Numbered from the whole stretch's first letter, positions 12,501-52,503 are shown. The stretch is DNA of 63,516 bases, filler included, from 12 parts of 12 records of this genome joined end to end with filler, not necessarily neighbours in it; one strand, 5' to 3'. A program made the numbers and translations. Notes: generated from the letters alone by a model not told the origin.

Positions 12501-13492
12501 CTCCAGGTTCGAGACGAATGATGTCCCCGCGCAAAGAGCATGCGCCACTGGCAGCATCTAGTCATGCAAAGACAAGCGAAGAGAGCAGCATGGCGGACGT
12601 GGCTGCGGTTGCACGGGAGTTGGAGGTCGGCCTTGCTGTTGAGCTTGATGAGCTGGAGGCCTTGGAAGCAGCCGAACTTGCGAGCATGGAAATGGCGGCC
12701 ACGCAAGAAGCTGATGAGGTGCACACCACTGACGCTGCTGTGGCCGAGCTGGTGGAGGTCAAGACGACGGCCAAGTCGAATGTGATCACAGTAACGTGTC
12801 CTGAGGGCTCCCAGTCAGGGAGTGTCATCATGGTCGAGATGGATGGACTAGAGATTGAAGTGGAGATACCGGAGGGCGTGGTCCCAGGTGGTGCATTTGA
12901 CATTGAGTTTGATGATGGCTCTGATGAGGACGATGAGACGCCAACGGCACCCGATTCTACCACCGTTGATGCATTGTCATCACTTGCATCTACTGAACAA
13001 AATGCAGCGATCGTGGTGCAGAGGCAGTGGCGTGGCTACCGCGTCCGTGCACGTCCTGCTTTGCCGAAGACCAGCCCTAAAATCTCAAATACCGACGAGA
13101 TTGAGCCTGCAAATGACAGTATCGGGCAGCTGCTCGGTCCACACAATTCCAATAGTAGGATGACGGCGCATGGTATCGATATACCAGCCTCAGCCAAAGA
13201 TCGTCGGGCATCGTTAGTGCTTGCATCGAACAGGATCGAAGGGCTTGAAGCGATGTTCAGCCAGTTGAAGGATGACCTCGCAGGACCAGGGTCGATCACT
13301 GCTGCGACAACCTCGGGGGGAACAGGAACGCAGCAGCCAACAGAACCTGCAAATGTATCTCCCAAGAAGGAGGAATTAGTGTTCTCAGAACTCGCAGGCA
13401 TACTTGACGCAAGCACTGATGACGACAGCAGTAGTGGTAGCGATGACAGCAGCCTCGATTTGCAGAGCCTAGGTGTGAAGGATGTGATGTAG
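9505..13492 (+). CDS. Large low-complexity/coiled-coil protein with IQ motif and a small beta-module (5'-partial)
   Basis: The frame is open from the contig start (poly-Q from a CAG repeat). Intron 10810-10897 (alternative acceptor 10876) joins the 9817 and 10844 ORFs. IQ-like AAIVVQRQWRGYRVR; module ITVTCPEGSQSGSVIMVEMDGLEIEVEIPEGVVPGGAFDIEF. Confidence 0.7.
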
Positions 13493-28168: not shown

Positions 28169-31100
28169 ATGGCTTCGGAGGTACCCGTTGGACTGGAGGT
28201 TGACAATTCTAGAACGCCGTCGGGTGGCATGGCTGTGACAGACGGGACTTGGGTGTACTCCGCACGTCGTCTAGACGGACCAGAAGAGCCGATGCAGCCG
28301 AATGGTGAAGCCCACCGGGACCGCCGTCGAGGACGACCACAATCAAGGACGTTGCTGGAGGCAGTCAGTGCGATGTCTTCAGGAGAAATGGCTGGGCAGC
28401 GCAGCAGTTTACCTGACTTCAACAGGCCTATACCACCTCGGGAGACAGCATTTGCCGGCGAGCAGCCACCCATTCCCGAAATCCCCCCTCCGGGAGTCCC
28501 ACGAGCGGCAGCAGTACCACTGTGTGGCTCGAGCGAACCGGTACTGTCCGCTGAGCCCTCGTCTCCACTGTCGGCTGCAACAGCGTCGTTGGGGGCAGTG
28601 AAGGTCCCAGCTTCGCCGGCTGACGCACCATTTGCGTTCGTTCGTGAAGTGCGCCCATATTTCCTCGACAAACCGCGGCTCAAACTGCAACATCGTGTTG
28701 GTGAGTTGCTATTTCACAGCGCCAACAGGCATGGCGTTGCCGACGGCATTGGGGCCAAAAGTGGAGGCTCCGAGAGGCGGAAAGTTGCCGTCGAGCTGGT
28801 GCATTGGCTGCCATTTGACGAGCCCGAATCAGGTCAGATCAAGCGCTGGAAAGCTCACGCGATCTGTACTCGATCATTTCAAGACACGCACGAGTCTCAG
28901 AAACGACGATCCGCTCCTACTGCATCCGCACAAAGCGACCAAGCTGCTGCAGACAAGATGCCGGTCCAAGGAGCCACACCGCGCGGGCAGAAGGAGTTCT
29001 ACCTACTGGCGATCCCAAAGGGCGAAATTGCAAAGCTGCAGGTGAGTGAGGAACCATAGATGATTTTCACGCATGTCTATCTAACCTGCTGGTCCACAAC
29101 CGCTCCGATAATATTGGTGCCCTGAAATGCGTCGATATTACAATTCCTGTGTGTGGTTCAGCTGAGCGCCGGTGACAAGCTGATGTTTCGGCAGCGCCTT
29201 CAGAGGAATACTGCCACTGAAGATGGCATTCAGATGATGGTGTGCTCGACTGCGACAGCTAGGCACATGGACAGCACAAGTTTCGCCAGTTCTTCTGCAG
29301 CGGTTGATACTGCAGCCACATCGTCCATTCCCGGCCGGCAGCAGCCACAGCAAAACGGCGAAGTACAGAACGTTCACATGTTAGAAAGCGGGCATCGTCT
29401 TGGCAATCAACGTGGCAAAAAGCGCTCCCGTGAGCGTCTGGAGAGCAACGAAGAGTACTCAGCGTCAGGAGCCAATATGGATACGACTATAGCGAGTCAT
29501 TCGGCGGGCAGACGTGTAATCGAAACTGTTCGTGATATCGACGAGCGCAAGCAGGAACTGGAGAACGGCTCCGGGATTCTGCTGAATGCATCTGAGCTTG
29601 CTGCGGTTGCCTCCTTGCATCGACACATCGGTGGCTCCTTCAAAGACAGGTGAGAAACTGATGGTTGGAACGTTCTGCAACATATCTCGATCTGCCAAGG
29701 CATAATCACTGCGTCATCATTACGTCGCCATCCTGGAATTTGACCGAGTTCTGTGTGGAGCAGGCCCCGTTTTGTTGTTCCCCCAGCGTTCGGAAAAGCA
29801 ATTTGTGCCCCGTCGACAGGACCACAGGTAGATAAGCGGAAAATTCACGTCTGCGTTCACTCGAGAGGCGGCATTTCGTCTATGGAGACAGTCATGACTG
29901 TAAGTCGCGTGCGCGCCAAAGCTGCCGCACGCCCTGCAGGAAGTGCACAACCAGAGACCTGGACTCTATCGCTCGCAAAGAAGGATGCAAGGAGACTGCA
30001 GCTCGCAGCTGGCGATCAGCTACGACTGAAACATGAGGGTGAACGCCATAGCCTTCGATTTAGTGCAGAGGTGTCGTCACCAGTAGCGTTGGCGACCAAC
30101 GCACTTGGAAGCAGTAGGAGCCAGAGACAGAATCCACGGCGATTGCTTCGGCGGTTTGCCACGAGCACGTGCACGCTTCCGAACCCTGAGCCACTTCAAA
30201 CTCAGACGGCCTGCAGTGACGATGCTACGCCGGTATCTATTGGGTCATTGCGGACGACAGCAGCACATGTCGCCATACCGATACAGATAAATGGTGTTGC
30301 CGACAGCAATGCTGACGTCTCGGCCCATTTAGCCCAACCACTGCTGTCATTTAGCAAGGCAGTTCTACCGACCTTTCTTAAGACTGGTCGATGCAAGCTT
30401 GCGGCGAGTGTAGGTGCGCAGATATGTTTCGGCGCTCACTCCGAGGACAAACCACTTGAGGTTACAGTGCTCGGCCAGTCAACTTGCCCGGGCACAGTGA
30501 GTATTGCTTCCGCTGGCGATGAAAGCAAGGGCAGCAGCAGCACGACGCCAGGAGTAGCCGCGGATGCTGCCGATGGTGGTGGCTGCAACGGTGCCACCAT
30601 GGTTATACGTGGATGTGTGTTCCGGGAGGTGATGACCACCACAGCCCGGGGTGCTCAGCAGATCTACCAGCTGACGTTCAGACAGAAAGACCTTAGGCAG
30701 CTCAATCTTTCCGTTGGTGATACGATGGAGTTCACCGCCCTCCCGGCCGAAACCAGTGGCGGGGCAGACGGTCACGCGGACACAAGGACCAACGACATGC
30801 GTTTCAAGATGCGGATACGATCATCACCTTCCACCGCCTGTGTTGCCGTAGAGGATCATGTAGCGCGAATGCAAGACAACCTGGGGCCTGCCGTGTGTTC
30901 TGTCGCCGGTGCGCTTGCCGCAGACAGAGGTGGTAGCGAGCAACCCAGCGCCCAGAGCTGGAAAACTAATGGTTCAGACGCGATGATCATGGTGTATGGG
31001 TCTGCTTGCCTCCAACCATGGTCTAAGCAGATCAGTGCCAACTTTTTGAAGGAGGGGCGACTCAAAGTGCCGAAGAACTGGGGAGCGAGCTTCCTGCTAT

Positions 31101-31708
31101 CGACGCAGCATGTGCAACAGGAACAAGGACAGGAGCATCTGCCTTCTCGTCGGTGTGCTGTTGCGTTGGAGCTGCAGGACGGAGAACTGCTCTCAGGGAC
31201 AGTGTATGCAGAGCTTCCAACACCCAAAGGCTGCCATTCAGATGATGGGCATGCAATGGTTGCACCTCTTGGATACGTGCTTTGGATTAAAAAGGCTGGG
31301 CTTGCAAGGCTGGCTGCCAGTGTTGGCGATGAGATTCACTTCGCGGTCAACAGCAGCACTTGGCAGCCATCGGGACAAACTGTTAGTAGCACATCAACGA
31401 GACTGAGCGGTGAGCTGAACGATATTGTCCGCAGAGAGCAAGCTTCGACCAGATATATGGAGCTGCCGCTGGCGTCGCAACCACGGCTGCGGGTGTGGAT
31501 CAAACCAGCCGAGAGCGCAGAGACGACGCCAAGAGCAGGACCACCAGAACCTCAGAGTCTGGCTCCTGCTTTGGTCACGATGGCTCCAGGAGTTGCTGTC
31601 GCACGGTGCCCTCTACGCGCTGGTCTTCCAGTAGTAGGCAGTCACCCGCTCCCAAGCAAACTGCTGGTATCAGCCGCAACGGCGGAGGCCATTATCCCAC
31701 AACCCTGA
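28169..31708 (+). CDS. Protein with four repeats of a B3/DNA-binding pseudobarrel-like domain, 3 exons
   Basis: Repeat starts: FVREVRPYFLDKPRLKL, LHRHIGGSFKDRPRFVVP, FSKAVLPTFLKTGRCKL, WSKQISANFLKEGRLKVP. Repeat ends: KLQLSAGDKLMF, RLQLAAGDQLRL, QLNLSVGDTMEF, RLAASVGDEIHF. Exons 28169-29041, 29162-29649, 29764-31708. NLS-like RGKKRSR. Confidence 0.65.
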
Positions 31709-34129: not shown

Positions 34130-35875
34130 TCACTGGAGGGTTGGTACCTTCCCTGGCCGCAGGCCAGCCTGCTCACTCACATGATCCAAGAAAGGTAGCA
34201 ACGACGCGGACGAGTCTAAGTCCATCTCGTTCGGCAGACCTTGCTTGCGGCGAATGTGCGCCGCAAGCGCACCGGCCGCGCCTGGATATTTCTCCACCGT
34301 GCTCATTGGATCGGCGATCGTGCGCACAGTGAAGCAGATGAACTTGGATTTCGGCAATCGGCGCAGCGTCTGAAACTCAATGCGGTGCCAAACCTTCTCG
34401 CGGATGTAGTCGTCACCACCTTCAGCGATGCGACCCCACATCCCTGGTAACCGTTTGCTGGGCAGCCCTCCCGTTGCTTCGGCCTGTTCTCCTACGTCAC
34501 TCTGCTCCTGTCGCTGCTGCCGTGCCTTGGCATCTGCGTCCCTCCTTGCCTTCGCTGCCTGCTTCTCCTCCCTGAGCCCCGGAACCACTCTATCTGCCCA
34601 GTCAAAGCCGTGGGACAGTACTCCAGACCATCCATCACCGTCATGGAAACCGTAGTTGTGACGATACCAGCTGATCTCCGGCGTCATTTCAGTGAAGAGT
34701 CTGTTCATGCCCCGCTGCAGATGAAAATACCACCGGTCGACGTTCGGGTTGTGGATGGACGCCATCGAACGTTTATGCCTCGGCTTAGCTTCGAACGAGA
34801 ACGTCGAAACTGCCGACAAGAAGATGTGTTGCTTGCCGCTGGGATGTTCCTCGATGTGATCGCTGAACTCATAGTCTGGGAACGGCGCGCTTCCGCTATT
34901 TGTCCTGGGTAGCGGAGGCAGGTCCACATGGTCAGAAGGCAACTCTTGCTCTTGCAACAGGTACACGTCCTCCTGAATGAGCAAGCCGAGCAGCCGCAGT
35001 GGCTGCTCAGCCCAGCTAGCGAGCTCAAAGCTGTGCCCGTATCCTTTGGTCGTGGTCGAGATTGTTCCTCCATCCTCACTCAGCTGAAAGCGGTGTGGGA
35101 AGTACTCCAGCAAGAACTCGATTGCCATGGCTAGCGTCTCTGCCTCGGCCGCAACAGCAGACGGATCTGTGACATATACGTCGCCATAGTCTTCGAGAAG
35201 AAGGGTGCGCCGCATATTCATCTCAAACGCGTACGTTGCTTCGTCGGAGAGGTGGAGCCAGTCACGCTCGATGTTCAGCACGCCGAGCGAAGACTTCTGC
35301 CGGATCATGTGGTTCACGGTGCGGGTGTCGGCCGGCGGCACTGGTGTGCCGGTCGACTCATCGATGCGGAGCAGCCGGTCAGCGACTGCCCACTGGAAAC
35401 GGAACGTCTCGAGGCCGGTCGCAACGAACTTCGTGTGCGGAAACGGTGACTTGAGGACCTCCGCGTCCGGAACGATGTCCTCATGTGGCAGGATTCCCTC
35501 CCAGAACCGCGAGGATACGCCCACCCCGTCCCACGCTGGCGCACTCACCGAGGAAGAGTCAGCAGGGGCAAGCCTGCCGATCCGGTACCGCGGCGCAAAC
35601 GCGGCGAAAATGGATTGCGAGTGGAGCTCGGTGAAGGCATCGGAGGCGTCCACCCCGGCGTGCCGGAGCAGGCCTCGCGCGCCGCCGGGATGCTGCTCCA
35701 GGAACGATGTAAAATCATACACATCACCGTGGAGCGCGACCCAGCAGCTCGAGCGGGTGCGGTGCTCCGCGACTTCCTCGAGCGTGTAAACTGGGAGCTC
35801 CCCCTCGGCGTCGGCACCCGCCGCTAGCTGCTGCGCCAGCGCCTCGATGCGTGCCACCACGCGCCCGCCGCCCAT
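34130..35875 (-). CDS. Cytochrome b5 - DUF3445 (heme-dependent oxidative N-demethylase alpha-like) fusion with PTS2
   Basis: b5 domain YTLEEVAEH...CWVALHGDVYDFTSFLEQHPGG...AGVDASDAFTELHS. DUF3445 motifs LLIQEDVYLL, SMASIH, MNRLF...WYRHNY and RIEFQTLRRLPKSKFICFTVRT. N-terminal RIEALAQQL. Confidence 0.82.
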   Translation of the reverse strand: MGGGRVVARIEALAQQLAAGADAEGELPVYTLEEVAEHRTRSSCWVALHGDVYDFTSFLEQHPGGARGLLRHAGVDASDAFTELHSQSIFAAFAPRYRIGRLAPADSSSVSAPAWDGVGVSSRFWEGILPHEDIVPDAEVLKSPFPHTKFVATGLETFRFQWAVADRLLRIDESTGTPVPPADTRTVNHMIRQKSSLGVLNIERDWLHLSDEATYAFEMNMRRTLLLEDYGDVYVTDPSAVAAEAETLAMAIEFLLEYFPHRFQLSEDGGTISTTTKGYGHSFELASWAEQPLRLLGLLIQEDVYLLQEQELPSDHVDLPPLPRTNSGSAPFPDYEFSDHIEEHPSGKQHIFLSAVSTFSFEAKPRHKRSMASIHNPNVDRWYFHLQRGMNRLFTEMTPEISWYRHNYGFHDGDGWSGVLSHGFDWADRVVPGLREEKQAAKARRDADAKARQQRQEQSDVGEQAEATGGLPSKRLPGMWGRIAEGGDDYIREKVWHRIEFQTLRRLPKSKFICFTVRTIADPMSTVEKYPGAAGALAAHIRRKQGLPNEMDLDSSASLLPFLDHVSEQAGLRPGKVPTLQ

Positions 35876-36457
35876 TGGCTCCTCTGGATCGTCACCTTGG
35901 ACGGGCGGGCGGCCGGACCGTCTGTCTGGCTTCTTTGTCGCAGGCGACAGTGAGGATCTACACAGGCTGCCGCTCTGACGGTCTCGATCAGCTCCAGCTG
36001 ATCACTGCAGCGCGGGTGCTTTGCGCTGCAGGACGGCGCGTTGGCGGGCCAGCCAGCCACACCTGATGGTCCAGACGCGCTCCGTGCCCACGCAGCCAGG
36101 ATAAGGCGTACTCAGACCCGGTACAGTAGTCGTATTGATATATATGAAATGCTATATATGTGACCCTGAATGCAACCCTAAACCCCACCAGCANNNNNNN
36201 NNNNNNNNNNNNNNNNNNNNNNNNNNNNNNNNNNNNNTTAATTAATTAANNNNNNNNNNNNNNNNNNNNNNNNNNNNNNNNNNNNNNNNNNNNCCCAGTA
36301 ACTCTGGAATCGTACTGTGTGAGCGAGTATGAGGGATAGGCAACAAAAATTGCCTATCATTCGACGTCGCACACAGTACGGGACGGCTCGACTGGCTGGT
36401 TGCGCCTGAGTGGTTCCCCACCTGAGCGCCTGCACCCGCTGCCGCTCGTGCCTGCAG

Positions 36458-37196
36458 GCCGGAGGAGAACTGCGTGCTGCGATCCGAGTATGTGGAAGAC
36501 AACATTACCACGAACGGCGTCGAGCGGCACCTGACGATGGCTAACGTACACATCGCTGATTCGCTCGGCTATGCACGTGAGTTGCTGGTCATCGGACCGT
36601 TCGGCTCGTTCGATGGCAGCAATATTACGTTCTCGCAAGACCCGCAAAGCACAGCCAACTCAGATGGCTCACCCTGCGTCGAAGTAAACGCGCAGGTCTC
36701 CGGGAGACCATACTTCAACTGTACGGATTGTGTCTTCAAGAACTGCAGCAGCATCGGGACGGGCGGTGGTGTCACTGCCGGACCCAACTCCCGGTTGACT
36801 CTTGTGCGGCCCAGGTTCGTCGACTGTTTAGCGGGTTACATTGGCTGGTCGCACACGCACAAACCTGGATTTGGCGATGGGTGCTACTGTGAAAATGCGG
36901 ACCCTAGCTTGTGCGTGGGATGCACGTGCAAGAGTGGGACGGCTGGAGGAGAGCCGGGATGGTACTGCGATAGCAAGCGCACCGGCAACAGCACTGGGAC
37001 ATGTGGCACTGTGCTGCAAGGCCTGTGCGGCAAAGCCAAGGCAAGCAGCCCAGGTGATTGCTTCATCTGTTGTGGATCGCACCAGCAGGCACTCCACGCC
37101 GCCGGGTGTGTGTCAAGCGATTTTGGCCAGTTCTGCGGCCGACCAGAGCGTACAGAATCATCTGGCTCAAGTCGATCTCGCCAGTCTACGAAATGA
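36458..37196 (+). CDS. 3' exon of a Cys-rich, probably secreted protein (beta-helix-like segment plus C-terminal Cys module), 5'-partial
   Basis: Acceptor CCTGCAG at 36457; FNCTDCVFKNCSSIGTGGGV...RFVDC; terminal module CGTVLQGLCGKAK...CFICCGSHQQALHAAGC...FC. Confidence 0.6.
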
Positions 37197-37537
37197 ATGC
37201 CACAAGTAGCGTTCTGTGAACGAAATTTTAGAGTGCCTTCACGGACTTCTGTTTGTGCAGGCGCGTTAGCCCGCAGCAGGCGTCAGTGGACTGCCCTGGA
37301 CAAGTCCTCGGCATGCATGATCGTGAAAATGACCGCACTGTGGATCATAGCAATCCGCTTGTCAACGATTGGCAAAGGGTATAGGAGCCGACTAATGGCC
37401 CGTGTCAATTTCAGCCTCTCCGGCTCGGAGCTCAAAGAGCCCATCGATGTGTACTCCTACTGCCCGGGCAAACCTACTGCCGAACGGTGTCGTGCACAAA
37501 AAAGTTGCATTGTTGTAATGTGCACATTGCTAGGTTA

Positions 37538-40500
37538 CTAGGTCCCAACGGTCTCCGACCTTTTCAGGGCCGCGTGCATGGCCGGGGTTGTCCGGATCTC
37601 TCCTCGGTTGCGGTACATGTCTTCCAAGACGGCATTCCTAATGGAAGGCATCAAAATGCCGACTTTGATGCGAGCTTGCCTACACGCTTCGTTCGTGTTC
37701 GGCAGTGGCTTGCCTGTCTTGCGCTCGCATACAGAGTAGAGAACCTCATGAAAGTTCACCTGCCCCATTATGAGCGTCATCATTGCCTCGTTCGCACGAC
37801 CAGCAGGCACGTCTCCCGCCAGGCGCGCCTCATTCAGTTTCAGCAAGCCTGCTTCAAACTCTTGACGGTCTATCTGCCCATCACCCTGCTCAGCGGCAGC
37901 ATGTTGCGCTTGCTCATCGTCGGCGATATCGCCGTCGAGCAATCGCACCATGGCACCGACTTCGCCGCGCGTGAGGCCACTGATAGAGCGCAGCCTTTCG
38001 TGCAGCCTGTCAGCTGTGAGGCTGACCGCGTCTTCCGATACCTTAGAGTTTGAGCTTTTTCGCAATCGCGCGCGTTTTTCGCGGCCATCTGTCTCAAAGA
38101 CGTGATCTAGAATCCGCCCGATTCTCGCCTTGACCCCATCATCTGTCTCGGCTTCTCGCACCTCTTCCAGCGTTTTGCCCAGTAGGTGATGGGTTGGGTC
38201 GCCGTTTGGTAGCTCAATCAGTCTGAACAGCCTGGCGTCGTAATCGTGCTCTCCGGCAAGCTCATCCATCCCCACCTGCGGTGGCAAGTCATCAAACAAC
38301 GCCTTCAGATCACTCAAGGCAATCCACCCCGTAGCTCTGGGATCGAATTTCTTCCACGAGTCTTGAAATTGACTGATGTGAGCAAGCGTGATGGGCAATC
38401 CAGCAGCTCGGCTGAGGTCTTCGAAAGACCCGATGACCACATTCACGAACATCTCGAGCGTAGTGAACATAATGATGAGGCTGAAGCTGAGGAAGAACAC
38501 TTGCGGCAGACCTGGGGTGCCGCACGTCCCTGCGTCCTCGTCACAGTACGGCGGCTGAACCATAGCCGCGTGAATGGTACATGTAATGCGATCCTTCGTG
38601 GCGACTCCAAGCAGGGTGAGAGCGGCTATAGGAGCACGTTCAAAGTTGGTATTCGGGCCAATGCAACCTGTGTGCTCAAGTTGGCCCATCAAATTCATCG
38701 CTAGGACGGCAAAAATGAAAAGGATTAGCCCGACCAAGATGCCAATGTACGCTAGCTGTGGCAGAGCTTGGTACAGGCACTTCATCACTTCATCCAGGCC
38801 AAGCGTCGACTTGCTGTCACCGAGCAGCTTGAAGATTCGGCCAATTCGTCCAATTACACGAGAGACACGGATAACTCGGAAAAGGCTAGAGGAGAAGAGC
38901 TCGACCCCAAACCAGGTGAAAATAAGATCTGCCCACGAGCCAACGACCACGAAGCAGTCAAATCGGCACCACGAGTCACCAAAATAAATGGAGAACCCAA
39001 ATGCAAACATCTTCAGAACCATCTCAACTGTAAAGATCAGTGTGAACACTATGTTTAGAGCTGCCTGTGCATCCGTCCACTCTTGCGGCTCCTGATAAAA
39101 AGTAGCCGCCATCATGATGCAATTCGCAATGATACAGCCGACAATGAAATGGTCGAACACCTTTTGCTCTACAAGATCGAACGCTTTTGCTTGCAGGCCT
39201 CCCCCACCTATCCCGGATTTGACCATCAGGCCCACATCCTTGTTTGGCTTGGCAAAAGCCAGCTGTCCCAGAATGTCAAGCCAATGTCTCTGATCCTTTG
39301 AAAGATCAGCCATGCCCTCCGATGCAAAGTCTACGTACTTGCCATATATCACACCAATGAACAGGTTGAGGAAGAAAAAGTTGACCAGCACGATGAACAC
39401 CGTGAAGTACAAAATGCGCCACGGCGCGTTCTCCCGGATTGGCTGCTGCCCAGGGAATTCGGGAGCATCGACGGCCAAATGTGCAGTGATGATCCAGTCG
39501 TTGCTGGTGCTCACTGTGAACAGAGTAAACATTCCGTTGGCCACGTTGTCGAAGTTATTGTGCGGACGCACCCACACGTTGTTCTGCAATGCTCCACCTT
39601 CGATGTAAGTTCCGACACACGTGTCGATGCCACTGACACCCACGCCATCTGTGCACCTGTGGAACCGACCTTTGAATGTGGACACGCCAAGAATCGCGTA
39701 GGCCACAAATATGATGACTGTAACAGTGAAGGTAGCAGAGAGGGCTTTGGTAGACTCAAGCAGACTATCGATGAGCACTTTCAACCCAGTCATTCTGTTA
39801 AACATTCGCAGAGCGCGAAGAGCGCGCAGTAATCGCAATGTGCGCAAAAATTTGATTTCTAGCGCACTCGCTAGATAATCGAGCCAGCTTACGACGACAA
39901 TCATGAAGTCTAGACGATTCCACCAACCCCTGAGATACGCAGTGTCCTCCCGAACAAAGCCAACAGCCACGATCCGGACGCACATTTCAACAGTGAAAAT
40001 GATGGTGAAAATCATGTCAAAGGTCAACAGGAGTATACCGTGTTGGCTGAGAGGATCCACGCCCGGATGGTCCATAGCCATCGTGATGCAGTTGGATACG
40101 ATGAGTAGCAAAATGAACCGGTCTGTGTTCTGAGACTCAGCAATCGCAATGCAAAGCTGCCTGAAACGACTCCCAGGCGAGAAAATACCACACGATTTAC
40201 TCGTTCCAAAATTCCCATCGTTAATGTCATAGACTTGTTCATCAGGATCGTCAGCCACGTCGTACTCGAAAGTCGAGACGTTGGTGTCGATTCGTGGGCT
40301 GGTTTTAAGCGGATTTTGGAAATCATCTTCAGATGGTGCAGCCTGAACGTCACCATCTCCGGTCTCATGGCTACTTATGACGTACACGTCGAGAATGATC
40401 ACGAGAAGCAGATTAAGCATGACCAACGCGCCTATCACTACCCACGCGATAAAGAAAATGGCAGACCAGCCACCAGTAGCACGAATTGCATCGTACATGA

Positions 40501-43500
40501 CGACTTGCCAAGAATCAAACGTGATAATCTGAAATGTAGTGGTCAACGCGATCGTGAACGAATCGTAGTGGGCGCGAGGCTTCTGCTCAAAGCTGTCGAA
40601 CTTGCCACCGAATAGTTGCATTCCGAGCACCGTGAAGATGAACATGAATAGACCAGCCAGTGAAGCAATGTACACCAAGCCAGCAACTGTTTTGACGCAC
40701 ACGCGGTACACTGGCTCGAGTTTCGGTAGAGTATAAATCAGGCGTAGAGGCCTCAGTACACGCATCACGATGAACACGTCGCTGAGACCAGCGTCGGACG
40801 CACTTTCTTCTGTTGCACCAGCAACGACCCACTGTGCAAAGTAGACAGCTACTATGTCCATAAGGCCAAACGTCACCATCACAAGGTCAGGGCGCGCGCC
40901 TGTTACAGCAAAAAACTCATCCCAACCAAAAGCCATCGATCTGGCCCACATTTCAAATGCGAACAAGAGTGTCAACCACACATTTGCGGTGTGCAGAAGA
41001 TCGGCATTATCACGAGTGATGTCATGATGATCGAGCGCAAGCACGAGTGTGTTGGCTACGATCATGGCGACGACAGCGTAACGGAATCCGCCACTTTGGA
41101 GGACAGCGCGCAAATTTTGTTTCCACGTTGGCATCGCGACTCCTGCCCCGCGAGCGATTCTGGTGGCAATCTCATCATCGAAGTTTTTCGCGTTGTCCTG
41201 AGTTGGTCTGAAGACACCCGCATCCGCAGTCATCGTATCTGAAACCAATTTCGAAATCTCTGGGGCGCCCTTGGATCTAATCGCGGCCTTGACTTTGACC
41301 CACTGCGACTCAACTGTTTCCTCGACTACCCAGGCAGCGAACTCATCGGCATCAACGTCGCCTGACTGTTTTGTATCAATTTCGTTAAACACCTGTTCGA
41401 TCTCTTCGTTACTAATGTGGTGCAGTCGCATCCCAATATCCCGACGCAGCAGCAATCCAAACTCGTCCTGTCCCATCCTGCAGTCGCCGTCTAAATCATA
41501 GTACTCGAACAGGTTGTTCCAGTCGTTGTCCGGCTGGAACAAGCGTAATTTCGCGCGAATTTGATCAACCTTCGGTAACTCCTCGTTTACCGTTCCGACC
41601 TGCGCGGCAGCAGTGTAGTTTAGGCAATAACGCAATGCAAACAGGCAGGCGACCAGCGAGGGACCAGCATGCAAGCAGCATCCGTACGTCAATTCCTGCG
41701 GTCGATTGCTACATCATCCCAGGAACGGGTTTGAGGCACGACGCCAGAAGCACGTTGGTTAGCTAACTTTGTTGTGACCACAGCGACACAGTGAGACGCT
41801 GGCTGGAAAAAGTCAGACTGTCGCGAGGTGCGCTCTTACTTGATGAAGGCTCCGTGTTTGTCCGACATCCATCCGCTCACGTAGCTGGGCAGCCAAGACG
41901 TCATCACCTCTGAGCCACGTGGTGAACTCGATCATATCAATGGTGCCACCACCATCTGTATCGATCTTGTCGAACAGGATCTGTAGTTTTTGTTCTGTCA
42001 TGAAGACGCCTTTGTCCTTCAAGATCATGTCCAACTCGTCACGGTCGAGCTCACCGCTGCCGTCTTCATCGACCATGTCAAACAGATCAGCCCCTTCATC
42101 AGCCACGGCCATCGCGATCTCGAATTTGGATTTGAGCACAGCAACGAAAAGATTGAAAAGGAAGTAGCCTCCGAAGACTGTTCCGAACAGAAAATACACC
42201 GTTGCGATATCACCGGTTACGTCCTGCATGATATGCATCACCTCTTGCCATGATGAAACGGTCACCATCTGCATGACTGGGATGCAGGCGCCCCCGAAGC
42301 TGTCGAAGTTCAGGACACCATCGTATGGATTGTCGTAGTGGAGTACACATACATCTTGCGCCCCGGTGCACGTCTTGCCCTCAAAGAGTGTTGCCCAGCC
42401 GCCTGAGCCCGTCGATGCACGATCACAGAAGGCCGCATTGTTGTTCACGACCAAGGCCTGCGCTGCAGCACATATCTCCTCTTCCCCTGGAACGCAGGTC
42501 TCAGTCGCTCGAGTGTCGACCGTAGTTTGACAGCGCTGAAGCATCACGCCCTGCCACAACTGCACTCCGACTACAGCAAATGTGAACACATAGATCAAGA
42601 CCATGATCGCCAATACCTGCATCTGTGGGATTGACATCAGGATTGTCGAGACCAGCCGCTTCAAGCCTGGAAAACGATTAATCGTGCGCAGAGGGCGCAA
42701 CAGCCGGAAGGCACGGATTGCACCACCACTCGAAGATGACTCGGAGAAGATGTAGGGTAGCCAGCTAGTCAGCACGACAACGGCGTCTAGAATATTCCAC
42801 GGCGACTGTAGATATGTGTGCGGGCCGTTGACCAGGCCCAAGGCGAAGATCTTCAAGCACATCTCGATCGTGAACAAGATATTCTGCGGACCAGTCAGGG
42901 GTAAGCATTTCGCACGCTCGGCCAAGACTGTAGCAAGGGAAGCGGCACTGGTGCTAGGACAAGCAAGGGTCCAACAGAACGCACAAAGCTCAGCTCCGCA
43001 GCGGTCATCCACTCTGGATTGTTCTCTGGACGCAGTGGATCCTCGAGCGCCATGAGCACGGAGTTGCAGCCGATCAGACCAAGCACGACGTAGTCGAAGG
43101 CAGACATCGAGACCAGTTTGATGGCGGCCAGTCGGGCTGGGTTCTCTAGCGCCAAGAAGCCGAGAGAAGAAGCCTCGAAAGCACCAGCCGGCAGGCCATT
43201 CGGCCTGGCACCCGCTCGTGCCTCTTCTTCGGCAGCTACCATCTCAGACTCTCGGACCTCCTCTAGGATCGGATCGACAAACTCTTTGAAGCCCTCGAAA
43301 TCCAGCTCGGGCTCTTCGCCAGCTAGCAGCTTGGTCTTCAGCTTGCTCTCGAGCATACGGTGGACTTGATCCTCCGACGTTGGCACTCCCAGGAGCTCAA
43401 CGAAGCGCGAGAGCTCTATCATGTCCAAGCCGCCGCTGTCGTCCGCGTCCAGCACGCGGAACATCTGTTCGACCGTGAGCACAGTGCCTGGCTCGACGAT

Positions 43501-43716
43501 CTCATCGTCAATGGACAGCTCTCTGCTTAGCACAGGCTTCAGCTTCGGCTGTTTCCGGGACCCGAAGCTTCCTTTGGAGGAGAGCACCGCCTGCGGCCCC
43601 GCCATCGTCTCCTCCGCTGCGATCCGCTTCGACTCTCGCAGCTGGCCGCTTGATGTTACCACTGGCAGTCCAGCCATTTCTACCACCCCGTCATCCATCG
43701 CGTCCATCACGTCCAT
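37538..43716 (-). CDS. Four-domain voltage-gated cation channel (Cav/Nav superfamily) with multiple EF-hands, 3 exons
   Basis: Four S4 segments: IRAFRLLRPLRTINR, MRVLRPLRLI, LRTLRLLRALRALRMFNR and FRVIRVSRVIGRIGRIFK. Four pore loops and S6 helices (LFNLFVAV, MLNLLLVII, FLNLFIGVI, LEMFVNVV). Exons about 43716-42985, 42883-41840, 41599-37538; the second intron boundary is less certain. Confidence 0.93.
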
Positions 43717-44388
43717 CCCCTCGGGTCACGAAACGCCCGTCTCCCCACCCATACCAGTCACTGGCAATGCCCCGGCGCGCCAGGAGCGAAAGTCGACCGC
43801 GCTGCTCTCGGGCTCCGCCTCCGCCTCGCTACACCATCTCCCAGCCGAGCCGTCTATCTATCTCGATCCATCACTGGGCAACCAGCGATGGCCCTCCACC
43901 CACACAGCAGCACGGCGTCCCCCCTCCAGGTGGACCACCCTCCCCAGCCAATCGTATGGCCCCAGTCAAATGTCTGGGACGATGATCATGAATGGGGCAC
44001 GGCTCCACCCCACACAGCACACCACTACAGCCATGCCTCGCCCACCCCCATCCACACCCCCCAGCCACCTCCCCAGCCAACTCTACGCACGGGAAAAGTC
44101 CGCTTTTTCGCCCCAGTCAANNNNNNNNNNNNNNNNNNNNNNNNNNNNNNNNNNNNNNNNNNNNTTAATTAATTAANNNNNNNNNNNNNNNNNNNNNNNN
44201 NNNNNNNNNNNNNNNNNNNNCGCTGTATCACGTCGGCCAGTATCGCTGTGCGCGGGGAACGAATCGAATGCGCGCGCATTACTGCCGCGCGCGCACCCGC
44301 CGCCGCGCGCGCGGGAACGCGCGCGCGCGGTTGTGCCGTGGCCAGCGGTCGACACGCGCTGCCGCTGCTGCACGTGAACGAAGAGAAC

Positions 44389-47949: not shown

Positions 47950-50268
47950 CTAAGCTAAATTTACCAGCACAACGGCCACATCGCCTACCTCCACTACTAC
48001 CCGCATCGAGTTGTTAGCTACCACAAGTGGTAAGCCGTTTTTGGTTGCAAGCGTGGCGCTTGAGACCGTCCCGTAGGCTTCCTTCAGCCGTAGCATTGTC
48101 ACTAGACGCTTGCTACCGTCAATCTGCGCCATCGCCGCTGGCTGCTTGCTGACGCCATTGTTGTTGACTATTGTCACTTGCCAACCTTTGGATGTGCGAC
48201 CCAACGCCATCTCGAGCTGCTGCAACATGTCGTCACCGCGAGAGTCCACGAGTTCAAAAGGCAATATATCTGTCGCCAATCGTTTAAGCAAGTGTTCGAT
48301 TATACCAAATCGTTCCAAGACGGTGGCAGATTCTAGCAACAGGGTGATAACGCAGCCACTACCGACATTATGCTTCAGTGCGATTGGTACCACTGTGTCA
48401 TTCTCAAAAGTCCCCTCTAGTAGCACGGATGCGGTCGTCAACGCTACTCCACGAAGTCCAAGTGGCCGTGGTGGCAGAATTGGTTGCTGTCCCCATGTGG
48501 GACAACCGATATCGTTGCTCTCGGCTGGCTGACATGGGAGGCACTCCACGCGTTGTGTTATTGCTTCTTCGCACTGTTTTTGGGTCGCGAACCACCGGCA
48601 TGCTGCGTTGCTTACTCGGCAGCACTTGTCTGTATGACTCCAGCCCGCGCTACGCGTTGGGTCCCCACCAGTTTTTATATACCAGCTAGCCTGTGGTGCT
48701 GCAGATTGTGCAACGCAGAATGGGCGTGAGTTGTTTGCGAGACCAGGGCGTCCAGGCGTATTGTTATGCCACGAGGTCTCCAGATCCCGCACCGCCTTGA
48801 GCTTTGGCTGCAGCTCCATGTTGTTGCTAAACGTAGCCCCGATTAGACGAGCAGTGATATCTACATCTGCAGCCAGTTGCGATGCGAATACAACGGCTGT
48901 ACCTCCGTCCGTAATCCACTGTTCCAGTAGAGCCACCTTCGGGGTACAGAGCGACACGTTGCCAGCAGCGATAAACACTCTGTACAGGTGCAACGAATCA
49001 GTAAAATTGTACTCAGACAGAATATCAAATGAGTCTCCGTACGGTGATGGCACCAAGTAGTTGGACTCTGCGCCCAGGCCTTTCGATTTGATCTTCCAGC
49101 TTCCGGGCCACAGCGACTGCATGAGACTCCATGCCACTTGATCAGATCCAGTGAGCTCAAACATATTCCAGGTGCGTGGCCCGTCATGGCCAAGTACGAG
49201 CCCGAGGCCAAAGCCGTGTGCATGCTCGAGTACGACAGCAAACGGTACGTATGGAATTGCTCGCTCGTGAATACCTTTTACGAATTCGCTGAACGTACGG
49301 GCCTGCTCTCCAAGTGGCGAGAGGGGCAGGACGCCGTCAGTACTCCCGTGCTCCAGAAACAGATTCACACCTCCCGCCTCTATGATTAGATGGTTGGCAC
49401 CAGACAAATACGAAAGGTACCATGATCGCTTGAACAATGACAGAGAGTGCCCCCCGGCGCCACCGGCTGCTGAGGCTGGACCCCATGGCCGCTTACTGCT
49501 GTAGTCAGTGATAAACCCTTCATCCCACGGGGACACATCGATTGCCCAAGGTAGATTATATTGGCGCCCTGCACCTCGTGTCAGTGCAAAGTGCGCCTGA
49601 ATACTATTGATATTCTCTTGAATCTCCGCAGCAACCACTGCAGTATGGCCACGTTGGACACCAAAGCCTGCATAAAAGTAGTGCCCGATCAGGTTGAACA
49701 CAGAGGCAGCTGCTCCTGGGGCAGAGGTGGCTTCGGATAGCCTGCAGTCGTAGTATGCATTCATCCTGGCCATCGCTTCGAGCTTCGTGCTCGGTACAAT
49801 GCCTTTCTGCGCCAGAGATGGCAAGGTTAGGTTAACACAGGGGCTCGAGCTGAAGTGTGGATACACAAAAGTTTGAAATTCGTAGCCCCACTCGCCAATG
49901 CCTCCCATCGCACTATCTCCGACCGTCTGACCGAGGCCATTGCACTCCAGTCCTGGTGTCAGCAGATCGCCAAAGTGTTTGCTGGCTTCGACAACCGCTG
50001 TCTTATTGAAGAGCGTGTCACAGCACGAAGCAGCCACAACCCACGTCCGGTTCGTTCTATCGTACGGCAACGGTAGAAATTGCAGGCCGCCAAACGATGA
50101 GAACGGCAGTGGGCTGAACCGAACGAGCGTCGGGTCATAATTGCGACTAGTTTGCAGAGGACCATGGAGGCCGTCGGGACGAATACCACTTGCACTACTG
50201 CAGTCGAGATACAGACACACAGCAGCCAGCAACTTCACCAACGGTTCTATAGAAGGTCGCAGCACCAT
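47950..50268 (-). CDS. Secreted protein, possible glycoside-hydrolase-like TIM barrel plus GATase-like/beta domains
   Basis: Intronless ORF of about 770 aa with a signal-peptide-like LVKLLAAVCLYLDCSSASG. Blocks GEWGY, AEIQENINSIQAHFALTRGAGRQYNLPW and GHSLSLFKRSWYLSYLSGA; LEQWITDGGTAVV resembles the GH42 middle domain. The fold call is inference. Confidence 0.65.
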   Translation of the reverse strand: MVLRPSIEPLVKLLAAVCLYLDCSSASGIRPDGLHGPLQTSRNYDPTLVRFSPLPFSSFGGLQFLPLPYDRTNRTWVVAASCCDTLFNKTAVVEASKHFGDLLTPGLECNGLGQTVGDSAMGGIGEWGYEFQTFVYPHFSSSPCVNLTLPSLAQKGIVPSTKLEAMARMNAYYDCRLSEATSAPGAAASVFNLIGHYFYAGFGVQRGHTAVVAAEIQENINSIQAHFALTRGAGRQYNLPWAIDVSPWDEGFITDYSSKRPWGPASAAGGAGGHSLSLFKRSWYLSYLSGANHLIIEAGGVNLFLEHGSTDGVLPLSPLGEQARTFSEFVKGIHERAIPYVPFAVVLEHAHGFGLGLVLGHDGPRTWNMFELTGSDQVAWSLMQSLWPGSWKIKSKGLGAESNYLVPSPYGDSFDILSEYNFTDSLHLYRVFIAAGNVSLCTPKVALLEQWITDGGTAVVFASQLAADVDITARLIGATFSNNMELQPKLKAVRDLETSWHNNTPGRPGLANNSRPFCVAQSAAPQASWYIKTGGDPTRSAGWSHTDKCCRVSNAACRWFATQKQCEEAITQRVECLPCQPAESNDIGCPTWGQQPILPPRPLGLRGVALTTASVLLEGTFENDTVVPIALKHNVGSGCVITLLLESATVLERFGIIEHLLKRLATDILPFELVDSRGDDMLQQLEMALGRTSKGWQVTIVNNNGVSKQPAAMAQIDGSKRLVTMLRLKEAYGTVSSATLATKNGLPLVVANNSMRVVVEVGDVAVVLVNLA

Positions 50269-50842
50269 TGCTAACGAACGCGTAATCGAGGCACCCGAAG
50301 CAACGCGTGAACACGAGAATCCCGCCCCGCACCGCTCGCTCGGAGCGCGAGGGACGGCGCCGCTATTCATACCCCCGCCGGGCCGCCTACGATAGATCTA
50401 GCGCGGCGCGCCTGCCGCCTCCCGCGCGCGGCACCGACGCCGCCCGCGCGCGCCGGCGCCTGCCCTCGCGCTCATGCATGCATGCCTAGACAGTAGCTAC
50501 CAGTAGCAGTACACAGGCGTACCGGGCGGTGTACATGTCCGGTACCTCGCGTGCCTACTAGTATACCGCGTTTACCATCGCAGCTGAGATATGCAACTGT
50601 CTCACTGCTAAGAAACACTCGCTACTTGCAGCGCGCCGGTGGCAGCAGCTCAGCAGCTGGCCACCTGAGATCTGTAAATTTAGCACTCCGTCACCAGGCA
50701 TTGATTCCAGGGTGCTGTACAATGCAAACGCGCTGCTGGTGAAGCCACGGTAACTAGCCTGCAGGGCCTAGAGTGGACAGGCTGTGTGCGCGCGCGATCT
50801 GCGACCGTGGTTTTCGTGCACGCCGAGACGGTGCCTGTAATT

Positions 50843-52503
50843 ATGGTCGAGCTGGGGGATGCCGAGGGCCTCAGCGGTACATCGCCGCTGGATGTTGATG
50901 GAATGGCAGAGGTTCGTTCTACGCGGGGGCGAGAGCCTATGTCAGTTGAAATCGTGTCCCGTGCATCGGAGATTCGTGATACTGCTAGCTTGCGGGATGC
51001 GATGGTGGTGTTCTGCGACCTCACCACTGTCCCGCTCGTGACTGCTGGGCTTGCGCACGGGGCAAAAGAGGCGAGGATACTGTCGGATGTGCAGACAGTC
51101 GCAGACTACGCTGCAGAGCACTTCCGATTCCCGACTCAGCGTGTAGTTGGAGGGACTGTGCCGGTAGTCGACCCGGACACGACTGACAGGGAGCCGCTGA
51201 GTGACCAGGAGTTTGCGGAAGTATCCGAGGCGTTTGTAGAGGCTTGCACAGAGAAGGAAACAGCTGACCGAGCGGTACAACGGTTGGCTCGAATCGAAAA
51301 ATTGCTTCAAAAATCGTTTGCAGCGCCCTACAAGTCGCTTGGCCGCCTCTCGAACCCAGCGCGGAGCACCGCGGCGTTGAAGAAGCAGCAGGCAGCTGCG
51401 GCGGCTTCGTTCGCAAACGCGTCCGTCACTGTTGCCAAACTCGAGCGGGTCGTGCAGACTCGCTCCAAACCTCGCGAGCCGATTCCTGCGGACTTGTGGG
51501 CAGAATGGCGGATGCCAGTAGCAACAAAGTACCACGCGCTGATGAGCAATCGTGTACTGCTGCTATCCGACACAGGTGGGGCTGCAGAAGCTCTGGCGCC
51601 ACTGGTTTCAGCGAAACGACTGGTCCTGTGCTGCTTCGCAAACTTAGACTCGGTCCGTGAACGTGTATTGGCCTGGTGGAGCTCTATTTCGACAATTGAT
51701 GCTCACCAACACCCAGACATCAACACTCGCGTCATACTGGTATGTGGCTCAGAGCCTGCAATACCGGCGAAGGAACCACGGGAGGCAGCTCTCACCGTGC
51801 GAGTCAAAGTCACCGTGCCGGTGGGGGCTACGGGAGGCAACACAATGAAGATCACGGCCAACGGAGGGATTAACCACGAGGTGACGATCCCAGATGGTCT
51901 CTCAGAAGGGTACGCGAACGTTCGGATCCAAGCTGGGGCCATAGTGGATTTGGCGTTGCGTTATGAAACCACTCAGAACGGGCTCCGTGATGACTGTTCC
52001 GTGCTGTGTTGTGCCGCAGGGAGCCATTCGACGCAGATATCCCGCTTCCGGGCGATGGCAACGTCACTGATAGCTCGACCCAGGGGCCGACGAGCAATGC
52101 CGAGCAGGATGAGGGCGGGCTCGCGCCTGCGGAACTACTGGCGGGGGTGTTGCTGTTCCAGCTTATGCAGTGTGCGGACGTCGAAATGTCTGACTTGAGT
52201 CCGGACGGGCTGACCCGTCATGCACTGCGCGCTGTGATTGAGGCGAGCAGGCATCCTGGCACGGCAGGTCGCGGTGAAGAAGGCCAAGAACAAGGCTGGG
52301 GGCGGTTGCGTGGCGTGCTGGAGCGCCAGGTTGTATGGCAAGGGTTGGCTGAGACTCAGGCTGACGTGGCGGAGCTGTGCGTGGTGGGACAGTACACTAC
52401 TGTGCCGTCATATGCTCAACGCGACGGCGTGTTCCGTGCGGATCCACTAGCTGGGATGAGCGTGGATCTACGGTTTGACGAATCGATTCGCCACAAGCTG
52501 TGA
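50843..52503 (+). CDS. Degenerate 2-phosphosulfolactate phosphatase (ComB)-fold protein with insertions, 2 exons
   Basis: Ordered ComB-like blocks MVVFCDLTTVPLVTAGLAHGA, RVLLLSDTGG...LVLCCFANLDSV, RVILVCG, AELLAGVLL and QADVAELCVVGQYTTVP. Intron 51910-52019. Confidence 0.6.

Follow-up and report, generated by a model that had tools for sequence, protein, structure and literature searches.

What would a four-repeat voltage-gated channel conduct if only two positions of its selectivity ring carried carboxylates, and is such a channel real? The question is raised by a gene on the minus strand of a 63,516-nucleotide stretch of DNA (filler included; hereafter the window), which is not a single stretch of chromosome: its 63.5 kb are 12 short contigs of about 3-9 kb each, chained end to end, and the gene sits on the one at 36294-44120. 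The original prediction, made from the bare sequence, had proposed a four-domain voltage-gated channel whose ring reads S/D/N/D from repeat I to repeat IV. We find that the ring does read S/D/N/D and that the channel gene is genuine, transcribed and under strong purifying selection; the pore filter appears to have been remodelled in a lineage-specific clade. The interpretation we favour, with modest confidence, is a voltage-gated cation channel, likely picozoan, whose remodelled filter would be weakly selective for Ca2+ and whose gating would be modulated by Ca2+ through EF-hands.

The overall architecture is that of a four-repeat channel of the Cav type. Four Ion_trans (PF00520) repeats lie in one polypeptide, one encoded in exon 2 and three in exon 3 (Pfam), and both the best solved relatives by sequence and the fold matches point to Cav, in keeping with the predicted domain structure. 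Cav3.1 comes first among solved relatives (6kzp, E 2.5e-138), followed by Cav1, Cav2 and Nav1, with NALCN at about 1e-45; a Foldseek search with a model of repeats II-IV returned Cav3.2, Cav1.2, Cav3.3, Nav1.7 and Nav1.8 at a query TM-score (TMq) of 0.70-0.76 (9ayg and 8hlp among the matches). The four pore motifs, TVSSW, TFDSW, TSNDW and TKDRI, lie on the minus strand exactly where they had been placed (Table 1).

The original prediction had asked that the pore loops be aligned with known channels. A MAFFT alignment was built that included chimpanzee Cav1.1 (P0114), mouse Cav3.1 (P0056) and 35 other channels; in it, Ser454, Asp954, Asn1292 and Asp1595 fall in the columns of the E/E/E/E ring of Cav1.1 (TMEGW/TGEDW/TFEGW/TGEAW) and the E/E/D/D ring of Cav3.1 (TLEGW/TQEDW/SKDGW/TGDNW), and no canonical register emerges. 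Identical residues in the flanks, such as FTVST and FQxxT, exclude a shift of register. An AlphaFold2 model covering repeats II-IV (916 aa, 32-row alignment, predicted local distance difference test (pLDDT) 76, predicted template modelling score (pTM) 0.72) gives the same placement: the turn of four residues that links P1 to P2 is occupied by TFDS in repeat II, TSND in repeat III and TKDR in repeat IV (model loops 208-211, 546-549 and 849-852; block pLDDT 86-92), and P2 then starts with Trp, Trp and Ile, respectively. The re-entrant pore loop (P1 helix, T-x-[filter]-x-W turn, P2 helix) is thus present in the alignment and in the modelled repeats, with repeat IV lacking the Trp. Alignment and model also bear out the predicted Lys and Arg flanks and the loss of Trp in repeat IV, and the ring matches none of EEEE, EEDD, DEKA, DEEA or EEKE, as had been claimed. 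At the positions that directly follow the ring (high-field-strength site plus one, HFS+1), the channel has Ser in repeats I and II, Asp (Asp1293) in repeat III and Arg in repeat IV, and a Glu stands at I+4.

The sequence recurs well beyond the window: the gene was found in marine metagenomes and metatranscriptomes of 13 studies. We compared contigs from two DNA runs (X1, X2) and two RNA runs (X14, X15) with the window. The DNA contigs of X1 and X2, from two different studies, span all four motifs with zero differences, and an RNA contig of X15 spans TKDRI with 0 differences, so the bases that the original prediction wanted verified are upheld at every motif these contigs span, at the level of assembled contigs. 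Among 40 variants listed (of 52), 24 are synonymous, 10 non-synonymous and 6 non-coding, and in a strain contig 93% identical next to repeat IV, 10 of the 11 listed sites fall at the third codon position. A scan for loci in metagenomes found six, among which L001 is the only close relative (L002-L006 are weak or partial matches of 26-46% identity). L001 shares 73-78% protein identity with the window channel and has all four motifs identical; the ratio of non-synonymous to synonymous substitution rates (dN/dS) between the two is 0.086 in exon 2 and 0.091 in exon 3 (Nei-Gojobori, with dS near saturation).

The gene has three exons, and their spliced product is 1945 aa long and stop-free. The earlier description of an undamaged open reading frame (ORF) therefore holds only in part. 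The gene is not a pseudogene, given that intron 2 is spliced, dN/dS is about 0.09 and 24 of 34 coding variants are synonymous, but the reading frame is not continuous: two introns interrupt it, the second with an in-frame stop. In the X15 metatranscriptome contig, position 41840 is joined straight to 41599 with 240 nt skipped, which shows that intron 2 is removed in RNA; the depth of RNA contigs was not taken as a level of expression. L001 has the same gene layout, with breaks at both intron places and exons 2 and 3 in different frames, and the proteins of relatives are collinear with the gene model across both exon junctions without gaps. Intron 1 is supported by these parallels and by its variability: within its 101 nt, strains differ at five single bases and by one 1-nt deletion; the deletion, at 42920, and the cluster of five substitutions are common to X1, X2 and X14. 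Non-coding positions in the sampled population diverge far faster than the coding sequence.

Table 1. Features of the channel gene, in positions of the window
Feature	Position	Strand	Details
Whole channel gene	37538..43716	-	ATG at 43716, stop codon 37540-37538; coding 43716..37541; three exons, 1945 aa
Exon 1 (244 aa)	42985..43716	-	Cytoplasmic N-terminal region, including a single EF-hand-like loop, followed by repeat I S1
Intron 1 (101 nt, GT..AG)	42884..42984	-	Unites two different reading frames; donor GTGCGT, CAG acceptor before 42883
Exon 2 (348 aa)	41840..42883	-	Repeat I S2-S6 and linker EF-hands 1 and 2; Pfam Ion_trans E 5e-43, EF-hand_7 E 1e-9
Intron 2 (240 nt, GTAAGA..CAG)	41600..41839	-	In-frame stop inside
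Exon 3 (1353 aa)	37541..41599	-	EF-hands 3 and 4, repeats II-IV, C-terminal tail; Pfam: three Ion_trans stretches (E 2e-135), EF-hand_7 (E 3e-10), weak GPHH
N-terminal EF-hand loop, DADDSGGLDMIE	43414..43449	-	Pfam EF-hand_7 weak (E 0.0036, under curated cut-off)
S4, repeat I	42674..42718	-	Four Arg in register
Pore motif, repeat I, TVSSW	42248..42262	-	Ring residue Ser454
EF-hand 1 loop, I-II linker	42035..42070	-	
EF-hand 2 loop, I-II linker	41927..41962	-	Gly at position 5
EF-hand 3 loop, I-II linker	41462..41497	-	
EF-hand 4 loop, I-II linker	41342..41377	-	Lys at position 3, may be degenerate
S4, repeat II	40733..40765	-	Three Arg in register; Ile and Tyr at positions aligned to Cav1.1 R1 and K5
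Pore motif, repeat II, TFDSW	40508..40522	-	Ring residue Asp954; Ser at +1
S4, repeat III	39794..39856	-	Lys/Arg run, every third position
Pore motif, repeat III, TSNDW	39494..39508	-	Ring residue Asn1292; Asp1293 at +1
S4, repeat IV	38828..38881	-	Six basic residues; one-residue register step at Gly
Pore motif, repeat IV, TKDRI	38585..38599	-	Ring residue Asp1595, Lys1594 and Arg1596 either side; Ile in place of the conserved Trp
Proximal C-terminal EF-hand-like region, Cav/Nav kind (lead only)	38264..38371	-	Pfam GPHH E 5.8e-4, 20.1 bits, cut-off 26.8

How unusual the filter is can be judged from the family around it. Relatives were collected by word-seeded and exhaustive HMMER searches, which showed a steep drop in score past a small set of relatives, and 198 four-repeat channels were aligned (the window channel, 37 first hits and 160 added sequences). 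The tree comprises 196 of these after a gap filter that excluded P0118 and P0123 (>45% gaps), and 58 of them were also analysed with IQ-TREE. The window channel falls in a monophyletic superclade of 30 sequences on a long stem (FastTree support 1.0; Shimodaira-Hasegawa-like approximate likelihood ratio test (SH-aLRT) 98.9 in IQ-TREE) and, within it, in a subclade A of 17 sequences that reaches down to about 42% identity (FastTree 0.996, SH-aLRT 100). Throughout subclade A the filter is nearly invariant. The repeat I ring residue is Ser in eight and Thr in one of nine informative sequences, repeat II has Asp in 16/16, repeat III has Asn-Asp in 17/17 and repeat IV reads TKDR in 15/15, a count that leaves out P0015, whose predicted protein stops 23 residues past the P1 helix. 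The pore motifs are identical among relatives at 42-90% identity, and nothing else in the protein is as rigidly conserved as its pore loops.

Sister subclades read x/D/(G-E)/D, A/D/N/-, A/D/(G-E)/D and T/D/D/D, the last being subclade D. Repeat I is Glu-less and repeat II has Asp across the superclade, and no member that covers repeat IV has an aromatic residue after the repeat-IV Asp. Among the 166 channels outside it, 102 read EEEE, 16 EEDD and 13 EDEE, and none reads S/D/N/D; position +2 of repeat IV is W, Y or F in all 163 informative channels, and a basic residue stands beside the repeat-IV ring residue in two of these 163 and on both sides in none.

The named members of the superclade also indicate the source organism. 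All are EukProt Picozoa single-cell assemblies: COSAG02 (P0012, P0118) and COSAG01 (P0298, reading TVSSW/TYDSW/TGNDW/TKDRA) in subclade A, COSAG05 (P0292) in subclade B and SAG31 (P0025) in subclade D. The COSAG and SAG31 labels are picozoan according to the portions available of bioRxiv 10.1101/2025.05.06.652364 and PMC10268365. An ORF with similarity to cytochrome b5 and an N-demethylase, on a neighbouring contig, is 85% identical to a protein of Picozoa COSAG03. Given this neighbouring gene and the channel's own named relatives, the metagenome bin is most likely a picozoan.

Comparison with the established channel classes places this protein near Cav without placing it in any class. Like Cav1, Cav2 and Cav3, it has four repeats of six transmembrane segments, S4 sensors, P1-turn-P2 pore loops and a III-IV linker that by eye is of the Cav type (LSKDQRHW, with no obvious IFM-type motif), together with a weak GPHH match, below cut-off, to the IQ-associated C-terminal region of Cav. 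An Asn is present in S6 of all four repeats. In contrast to the E/E/E/E ring of Cav1 and Cav2 and the E/E/D/D ring of Cav3, each with Asp at II+1, the channel combines S/D/N/D with Ser at II+1; its repeat IV lacks the Trp and has Lys and Arg beside the Asp, and identity to Cav is only about 25-32%. Nav1 and Nav2 carry D/E/K/A or D/E/E/A with a repeat-II loop one residue shorter, whereas the channel has neither such a ring nor a gap in repeat II; the Nav-like sequences P0113, P0204 and P0253 in our alignment read D/(E)/E/A with CGE-W. The E/E/K/E or E/K/E/E ring of NALCN goes with Asp at IV+1, whereas here the ring is free of Lys and IV+1 is Arg. Two-pore channels (TPC) pair two six-transmembrane repeats per chain and dimerise, unlike the four-repeat chain found here, and no TPC was among the 56 PDB sequences matched at E <= 1e-20.

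Unusual rings are in themselves well documented in protist four-repeat channels, which makes S/D/N/D less surprising than the original prediction implied. The available text of Pozdnyakov et al. 2018 (PMC5824947) speaks of 'a great variety' of filters, with T/E/N/D and D/D/D/D in Chlamydomonas, rings containing Arg or His in Micromonas and Ostreococcus, and S/S/K/E in Phytophthora; RSDD, SESE and TEND are given in the accessible part of Fux et al. (PMC6259924, where TEND is cited from Verret 2010). Our survey likewise includes R/S/D/D (P0220), S/E/S/E (P0231), A/E/N/D ([Myrmecia] bisecta KAK9823801.1, P0156) and S/E/N/D (P0226); P0201 (Pedinophyceae sp.) groups with the x/E/N/D channels yet reads G/E/D/D. 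The green-algal x/E/N/D channels have a similar ring: like the window channel, they place Asn in repeat III and Asp in repeat IV, have an acidic repeat II, and carry in repeat I a residue that is small and either polar or apolar. They differ in that the repeat-II acid is Glu, the aromatic residue of IV is kept (TTDDW, TTDNW) and the Lys and Arg flanks are lacking. A sister relation between them and the superclade is unsupported (FastTree 0.68, absent in IQ-TREE), and since they do not reliably group with the picozoan sequences, the likeness of the rings may be convergent. The prasinophyte R/S/D/D channels (clade WSC XXIX in the part of Pozdnyakov 2018 drawn on here) also have a conserved, lineage-specific ring with a basic residue in a marine picoeukaryote, but there repeat I supplies that basic residue as a member of the ring, clade and organisms are different, and we saw no report of an EF-hand linker in them. 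We found no paper naming SDND together with a selectivity filter, although figures or supplements of the surveys (PMC5824947, Verret 2010) might list a similar ring, and no paper on voltage-gated channels in Picozoa.

A second distinctive feature lies in the cytoplasmic linkers. Where Cav1.1 and Cav3.1 have unrelated sequence, the I-II linker of the channel is filled by two EF-hand pairs, encoded on opposite sides of intron 2 (Pfam E 1e-9 for the first, 3e-10 for the second). All four linker loops are conserved in subclades A-C and are absent in subclade D, Cav1.1 and Cav3.1; a fifth, EF-like loop near the N terminus is conserved in P0008, P0010 and P0015. Fusion of EF-hands to a voltage-gated cation channel is shared with plant and diatom TPC1 and with EhEukCatB1. 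In plant TPC1 the EF-hands lie between its two six-transmembrane repeats, in the cytoplasmic linker, and are required for Ca2+-dependent gating (PMC11085791, in the part available), and the currents of EhEukCatB1 are Ca2+-dependent (preprint 10.1101/2020.04.29.068528, likewise in part). TPC1 differs in having two repeats and two EF-hands, against four repeats and 2+2 EF-hands in the picozoan-type channel, whose sequence is closer to Cav, and EhEukCatB1 differs in having one repeat with a C-terminal EF pair. EF-hand fusion to four-repeat channels may be recurrent. Outside the superclade, EF-hand and PDZ domains accompany an EEEE ring in P0106; in a Protein Atlas cluster of proteins with Ion_trans and EF-hand domains, the commonest labelled phylum is Oomycota (a generic cluster, useful as a lead only).

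The voltage sensors are largely as predicted. An S4 with Arg or Lys at every third position was looked for in all four repeats and is present, and the description of the sensors as intact fits repeats I, III and IV; it does not fit repeat II, where only three charges are in register. The first and fifth charges of this S4 are lost also in P0005, P0008 and P0013, and the first is kept in the more distant P0016-P0018. In the subgroup formed by the window channel, P0005, P0008 and P0013, the repeat-II sensor may thus contribute less gating charge.

Taken together, these features suggest how the channel could work. Depolarisation would shift the four S4 sensors and open the pore. There, the permeating ion would meet a filter with two ring carboxylates (repeats II and IV), one further carboxylate at III+1 and two conserved basic side chains beside the repeat-IV Asp. 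Because only two ring carboxylates and the III+1 acid are available and two basic residues are nearby, such a low-charge filter would be expected to hold Ca2+ far less tightly than an EEEE ring does, and the pore would conduct cations with weak Ca2+ selectivity, being either monovalent-permeable or non-selective, perhaps with block by Ca2+. With a calmodulin-like set of four EF-hands in place of the usual I-II linker, Ca2+ bound there would tune gating directly, by analogy with TPC1 and EhEukCatB1. Any part played by the channel in setting off flagellar responses is speculative.

Published work on related pores offers partial guidance for such a filter. In the available portions of Spafford 2023 (PMC10120453), a neutral, non-glycine HFS+1 residue goes with sodium permeability, an HFS+1 Asp is tied to selectivity for, or block by, Ca2+, and high selectivity for Na+ is set by Lys; the HFS+1 Asp sits in different repeats by lineage and is described there for repeat II or IV only. 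Among one-domain channels, those with an Asp ring are less selective than those with a Glu ring (same source in part, and EhEukCatB1 E305D in the available text of 10.1101/2020.04.29.068528). Judged by these patterns, the HFS+1 residues of the channel mix signals and fit none of Spafford's four classes.

Several points weigh against the weakly selective, EF-hand-modulated channel we favour. Both its selectivity and its Ca2+ modulation are read from sequence. The loss of the repeat-IV Trp and the Lys and Arg flanks might distort or close the filter, and the structural model covers repeats II-IV. Some of the four linker EF-hands may fail to bind Ca2+, given the Gly at loop position 5 of EF-hand 2 and the Lys at loop position 3 of EF-hand 4. 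The base evidence consists of assembled contigs rather than raw reads, and the best DNA run is possibly the window's own source sample. The RNA backing is a single spliced contig of depth 2.3; among X14 and X15 there is no RNA contig spliced at intron 1, and the X14 RNA-library contig enters that intron by 66 nt. The taxon hangs on one neighbouring-contig gene of a binned, concatenated assembly and on the channel's own relatives. Finally, the three carboxylates at II, III+1 and IV, together with the Glu at I+4, could make a good Ca2+ site, and this last point opens the alternative that deserves most attention.

According to that alternative, which we regard as possible but clearly less probable, the channel prefers Ca2+, using an x/D/D/D filter made of Asp in II, Asp at III+1 and Asp in IV, with Glu at I+4 as an outer site, and behaving much as three-carboxylate rings such as Nav2 D/E/E/A or the T/D/D/D of subclade D. 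The acid right before the repeat-III Trp is kept as N-D-W in 17/17 sequences of subclade A and as G-E-W in related subclades, so that an acid stands there throughout subclades A-C; for this reason the working ring may be x/D/D/D, with Asp1293 as the repeat-III ligand, and subclade D has T/D/D/D outright. Nav2 with D/E/E/A passes Ca2+. It is called non-selective in the available text of Spafford 2023 (PMC10120453). In favour of this alternative, that source links an HFS+1 Asp, in a repeat that varies by lineage, to Ca2+ selectivity or strong Ca2+ block. Against it, the scheme as available places this Asp in repeat II or IV, not III; repeat II, the site of the HFS+1 Asp in animal Cav, has Ser in the channel; and in 15 of 15 sequences the ring has extra positive charge next to it, from Arg at IV+1 and Lys at IV-1.

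An unlikely but more far-reaching version, narrower than the reading we favour, is an excitable channel class of Picozoa's own, with a monovalent-selective, low-charge filter that alternates polar and acidic residues, has Lys and Arg by the repeat-IV Asp and lacks the Trp, and with direct Ca2+ gating through its calmodulin-like linker of four EF-hands. If true, it would be an independent, non-animal route to fast voltage signalling of the Na+ or K+ type, in a channel coupled to Ca2+ entering via other channels and driving the flagellar 'jump, drag, skedaddle', the motility described for Picomonas in the available part of PMC3608682.

Selectivity for Na+ could also have evolved independently, with the repeat-IV Lys and Arg acting as the Lys of Nav1 does and the Ser at HFS+1 of repeat II as in bacterial Nav; we rate this as improbable. 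TFDSW does resemble the one-domain TLESW type, Spafford 2023 (PMC10120453, in part) associates a neutral non-glycine HFS+1 with Na+ permeability and Lys with high Na+ selectivity, and in our survey only the channel's clade has its repeat-IV ring Asp flanked by a basic residue on either side. However, the Lys and Arg sit at -1 and +1, off the ring position, a ring Asp in place of Glu makes one-domain pores non-selective (PMC10120453 and 10.1101/2020.04.29.068528, available portions), and the Asp at III+1 argues for interaction with Ca2+.

Fainter still is the prospect that the protein barely conducts or does not conduct at all and serves as a voltage and Ca2+ sensor with its pore as a mere scaffold. 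The IV+2 aromatic, otherwise universal (163/163 other channels), is lost, the charge of the ring is low and the cytoplasmic EF-hand modules are large. Yet the pore motifs stay identical at 42-90% identity, in loops more rigidly conserved than anything else in the protein. The Asn residues of S6 and both pore helices, P1 and P2, are intact, and an invariant TKDR would be needless in a scaffold. An artefact, be it an error of sequencing or assembly, a pseudogene or a misregistered alignment masking a canonical ring, has next to no chance of being the explanation even though the window concatenates short binned contigs and the frame is broken twice: contigs from two studies and an RNA contig agree at the motifs, the same motifs stand in L001 and 15 further proteins with dN/dS near 0.09, the frame breaks are GT..AG introns of which one is seen spliced, and the flanks and the model fix the register. 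Sequencing error and pseudogene status are ruled out by the agreeing contigs, the motifs shared with relatives, dN/dS and the splicing of intron 2, and a shift to a canonical ring is ruled out by the MAFFT flanking identities and the AlphaFold2 model.

The contigs of the window are joined by 11 six-frame-stop linkers of the form N44-TTAATTAATTAA-N44, with 22 N-runs in all, at window positions 5482-54414 (for example 44121-44220). These linkers mark the window as an assembly that was binned or concatenated, so that which genes are neighbours across a linker is meaningless. At the start of the channel contig, a Cys-rich open frame of 256 aa (36426-37193, plus strand), cut by the contig end, converges on the 3' end of the channel gene. 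The ORF mentioned above in connection with the host (34133-36001, minus strand, intron-less, 623 aa) fuses a cytochrome b5 domain to a domain like the alpha subunit of haem-dependent oxidative N-demethylase (Pfam E 2e-23 and 7e-36) and is 89% identical to an NCBI-sourced protein. An open frame of 1784 aa at 2-5353 (plus) runs off the window start and matches no Pfam family at E <= 1e-5, and the same is true of the ORFs at 10823-13489 (plus), 29744-31705 (plus), 47953-50397 (minus) and 50705-52195 (plus). A Pfam scan of 10 long ORFs of the window found no housekeeping marker, and five of the ten had no family at all. No further paralogue of the channel is present in the window, where tblastn matches only the internal repeats of the gene itself.

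Overall, the selectivity rules applied to four-repeat channels have been derived almost entirely from Cav, Nav and NALCN of animals and from one-domain channels of bacteria. Nothing is overturned by the present channel, because diverse protist filters are already on record, and its value is comparative and biophysical. The channel marks out a picozoan clade with an S/D/N/D ring, a Trp-less repeat-IV loop flanked by Lys and Arg, and a four-EF-hand I-II linker, in a source lineage, Picozoa, that is widespread, marine and essentially uncultured. The I-II linker, with its four EF-hands, would let a Cav-type scaffold sense Ca2+ directly. With two ring carboxylates only, an HFS+1 Asp in repeat III, Lys and Arg by the repeat-IV Asp and no Trp in repeat IV, the filter of this clade, conserved in nature, departs from several selectivity rules at once and provides a ready test case for them.

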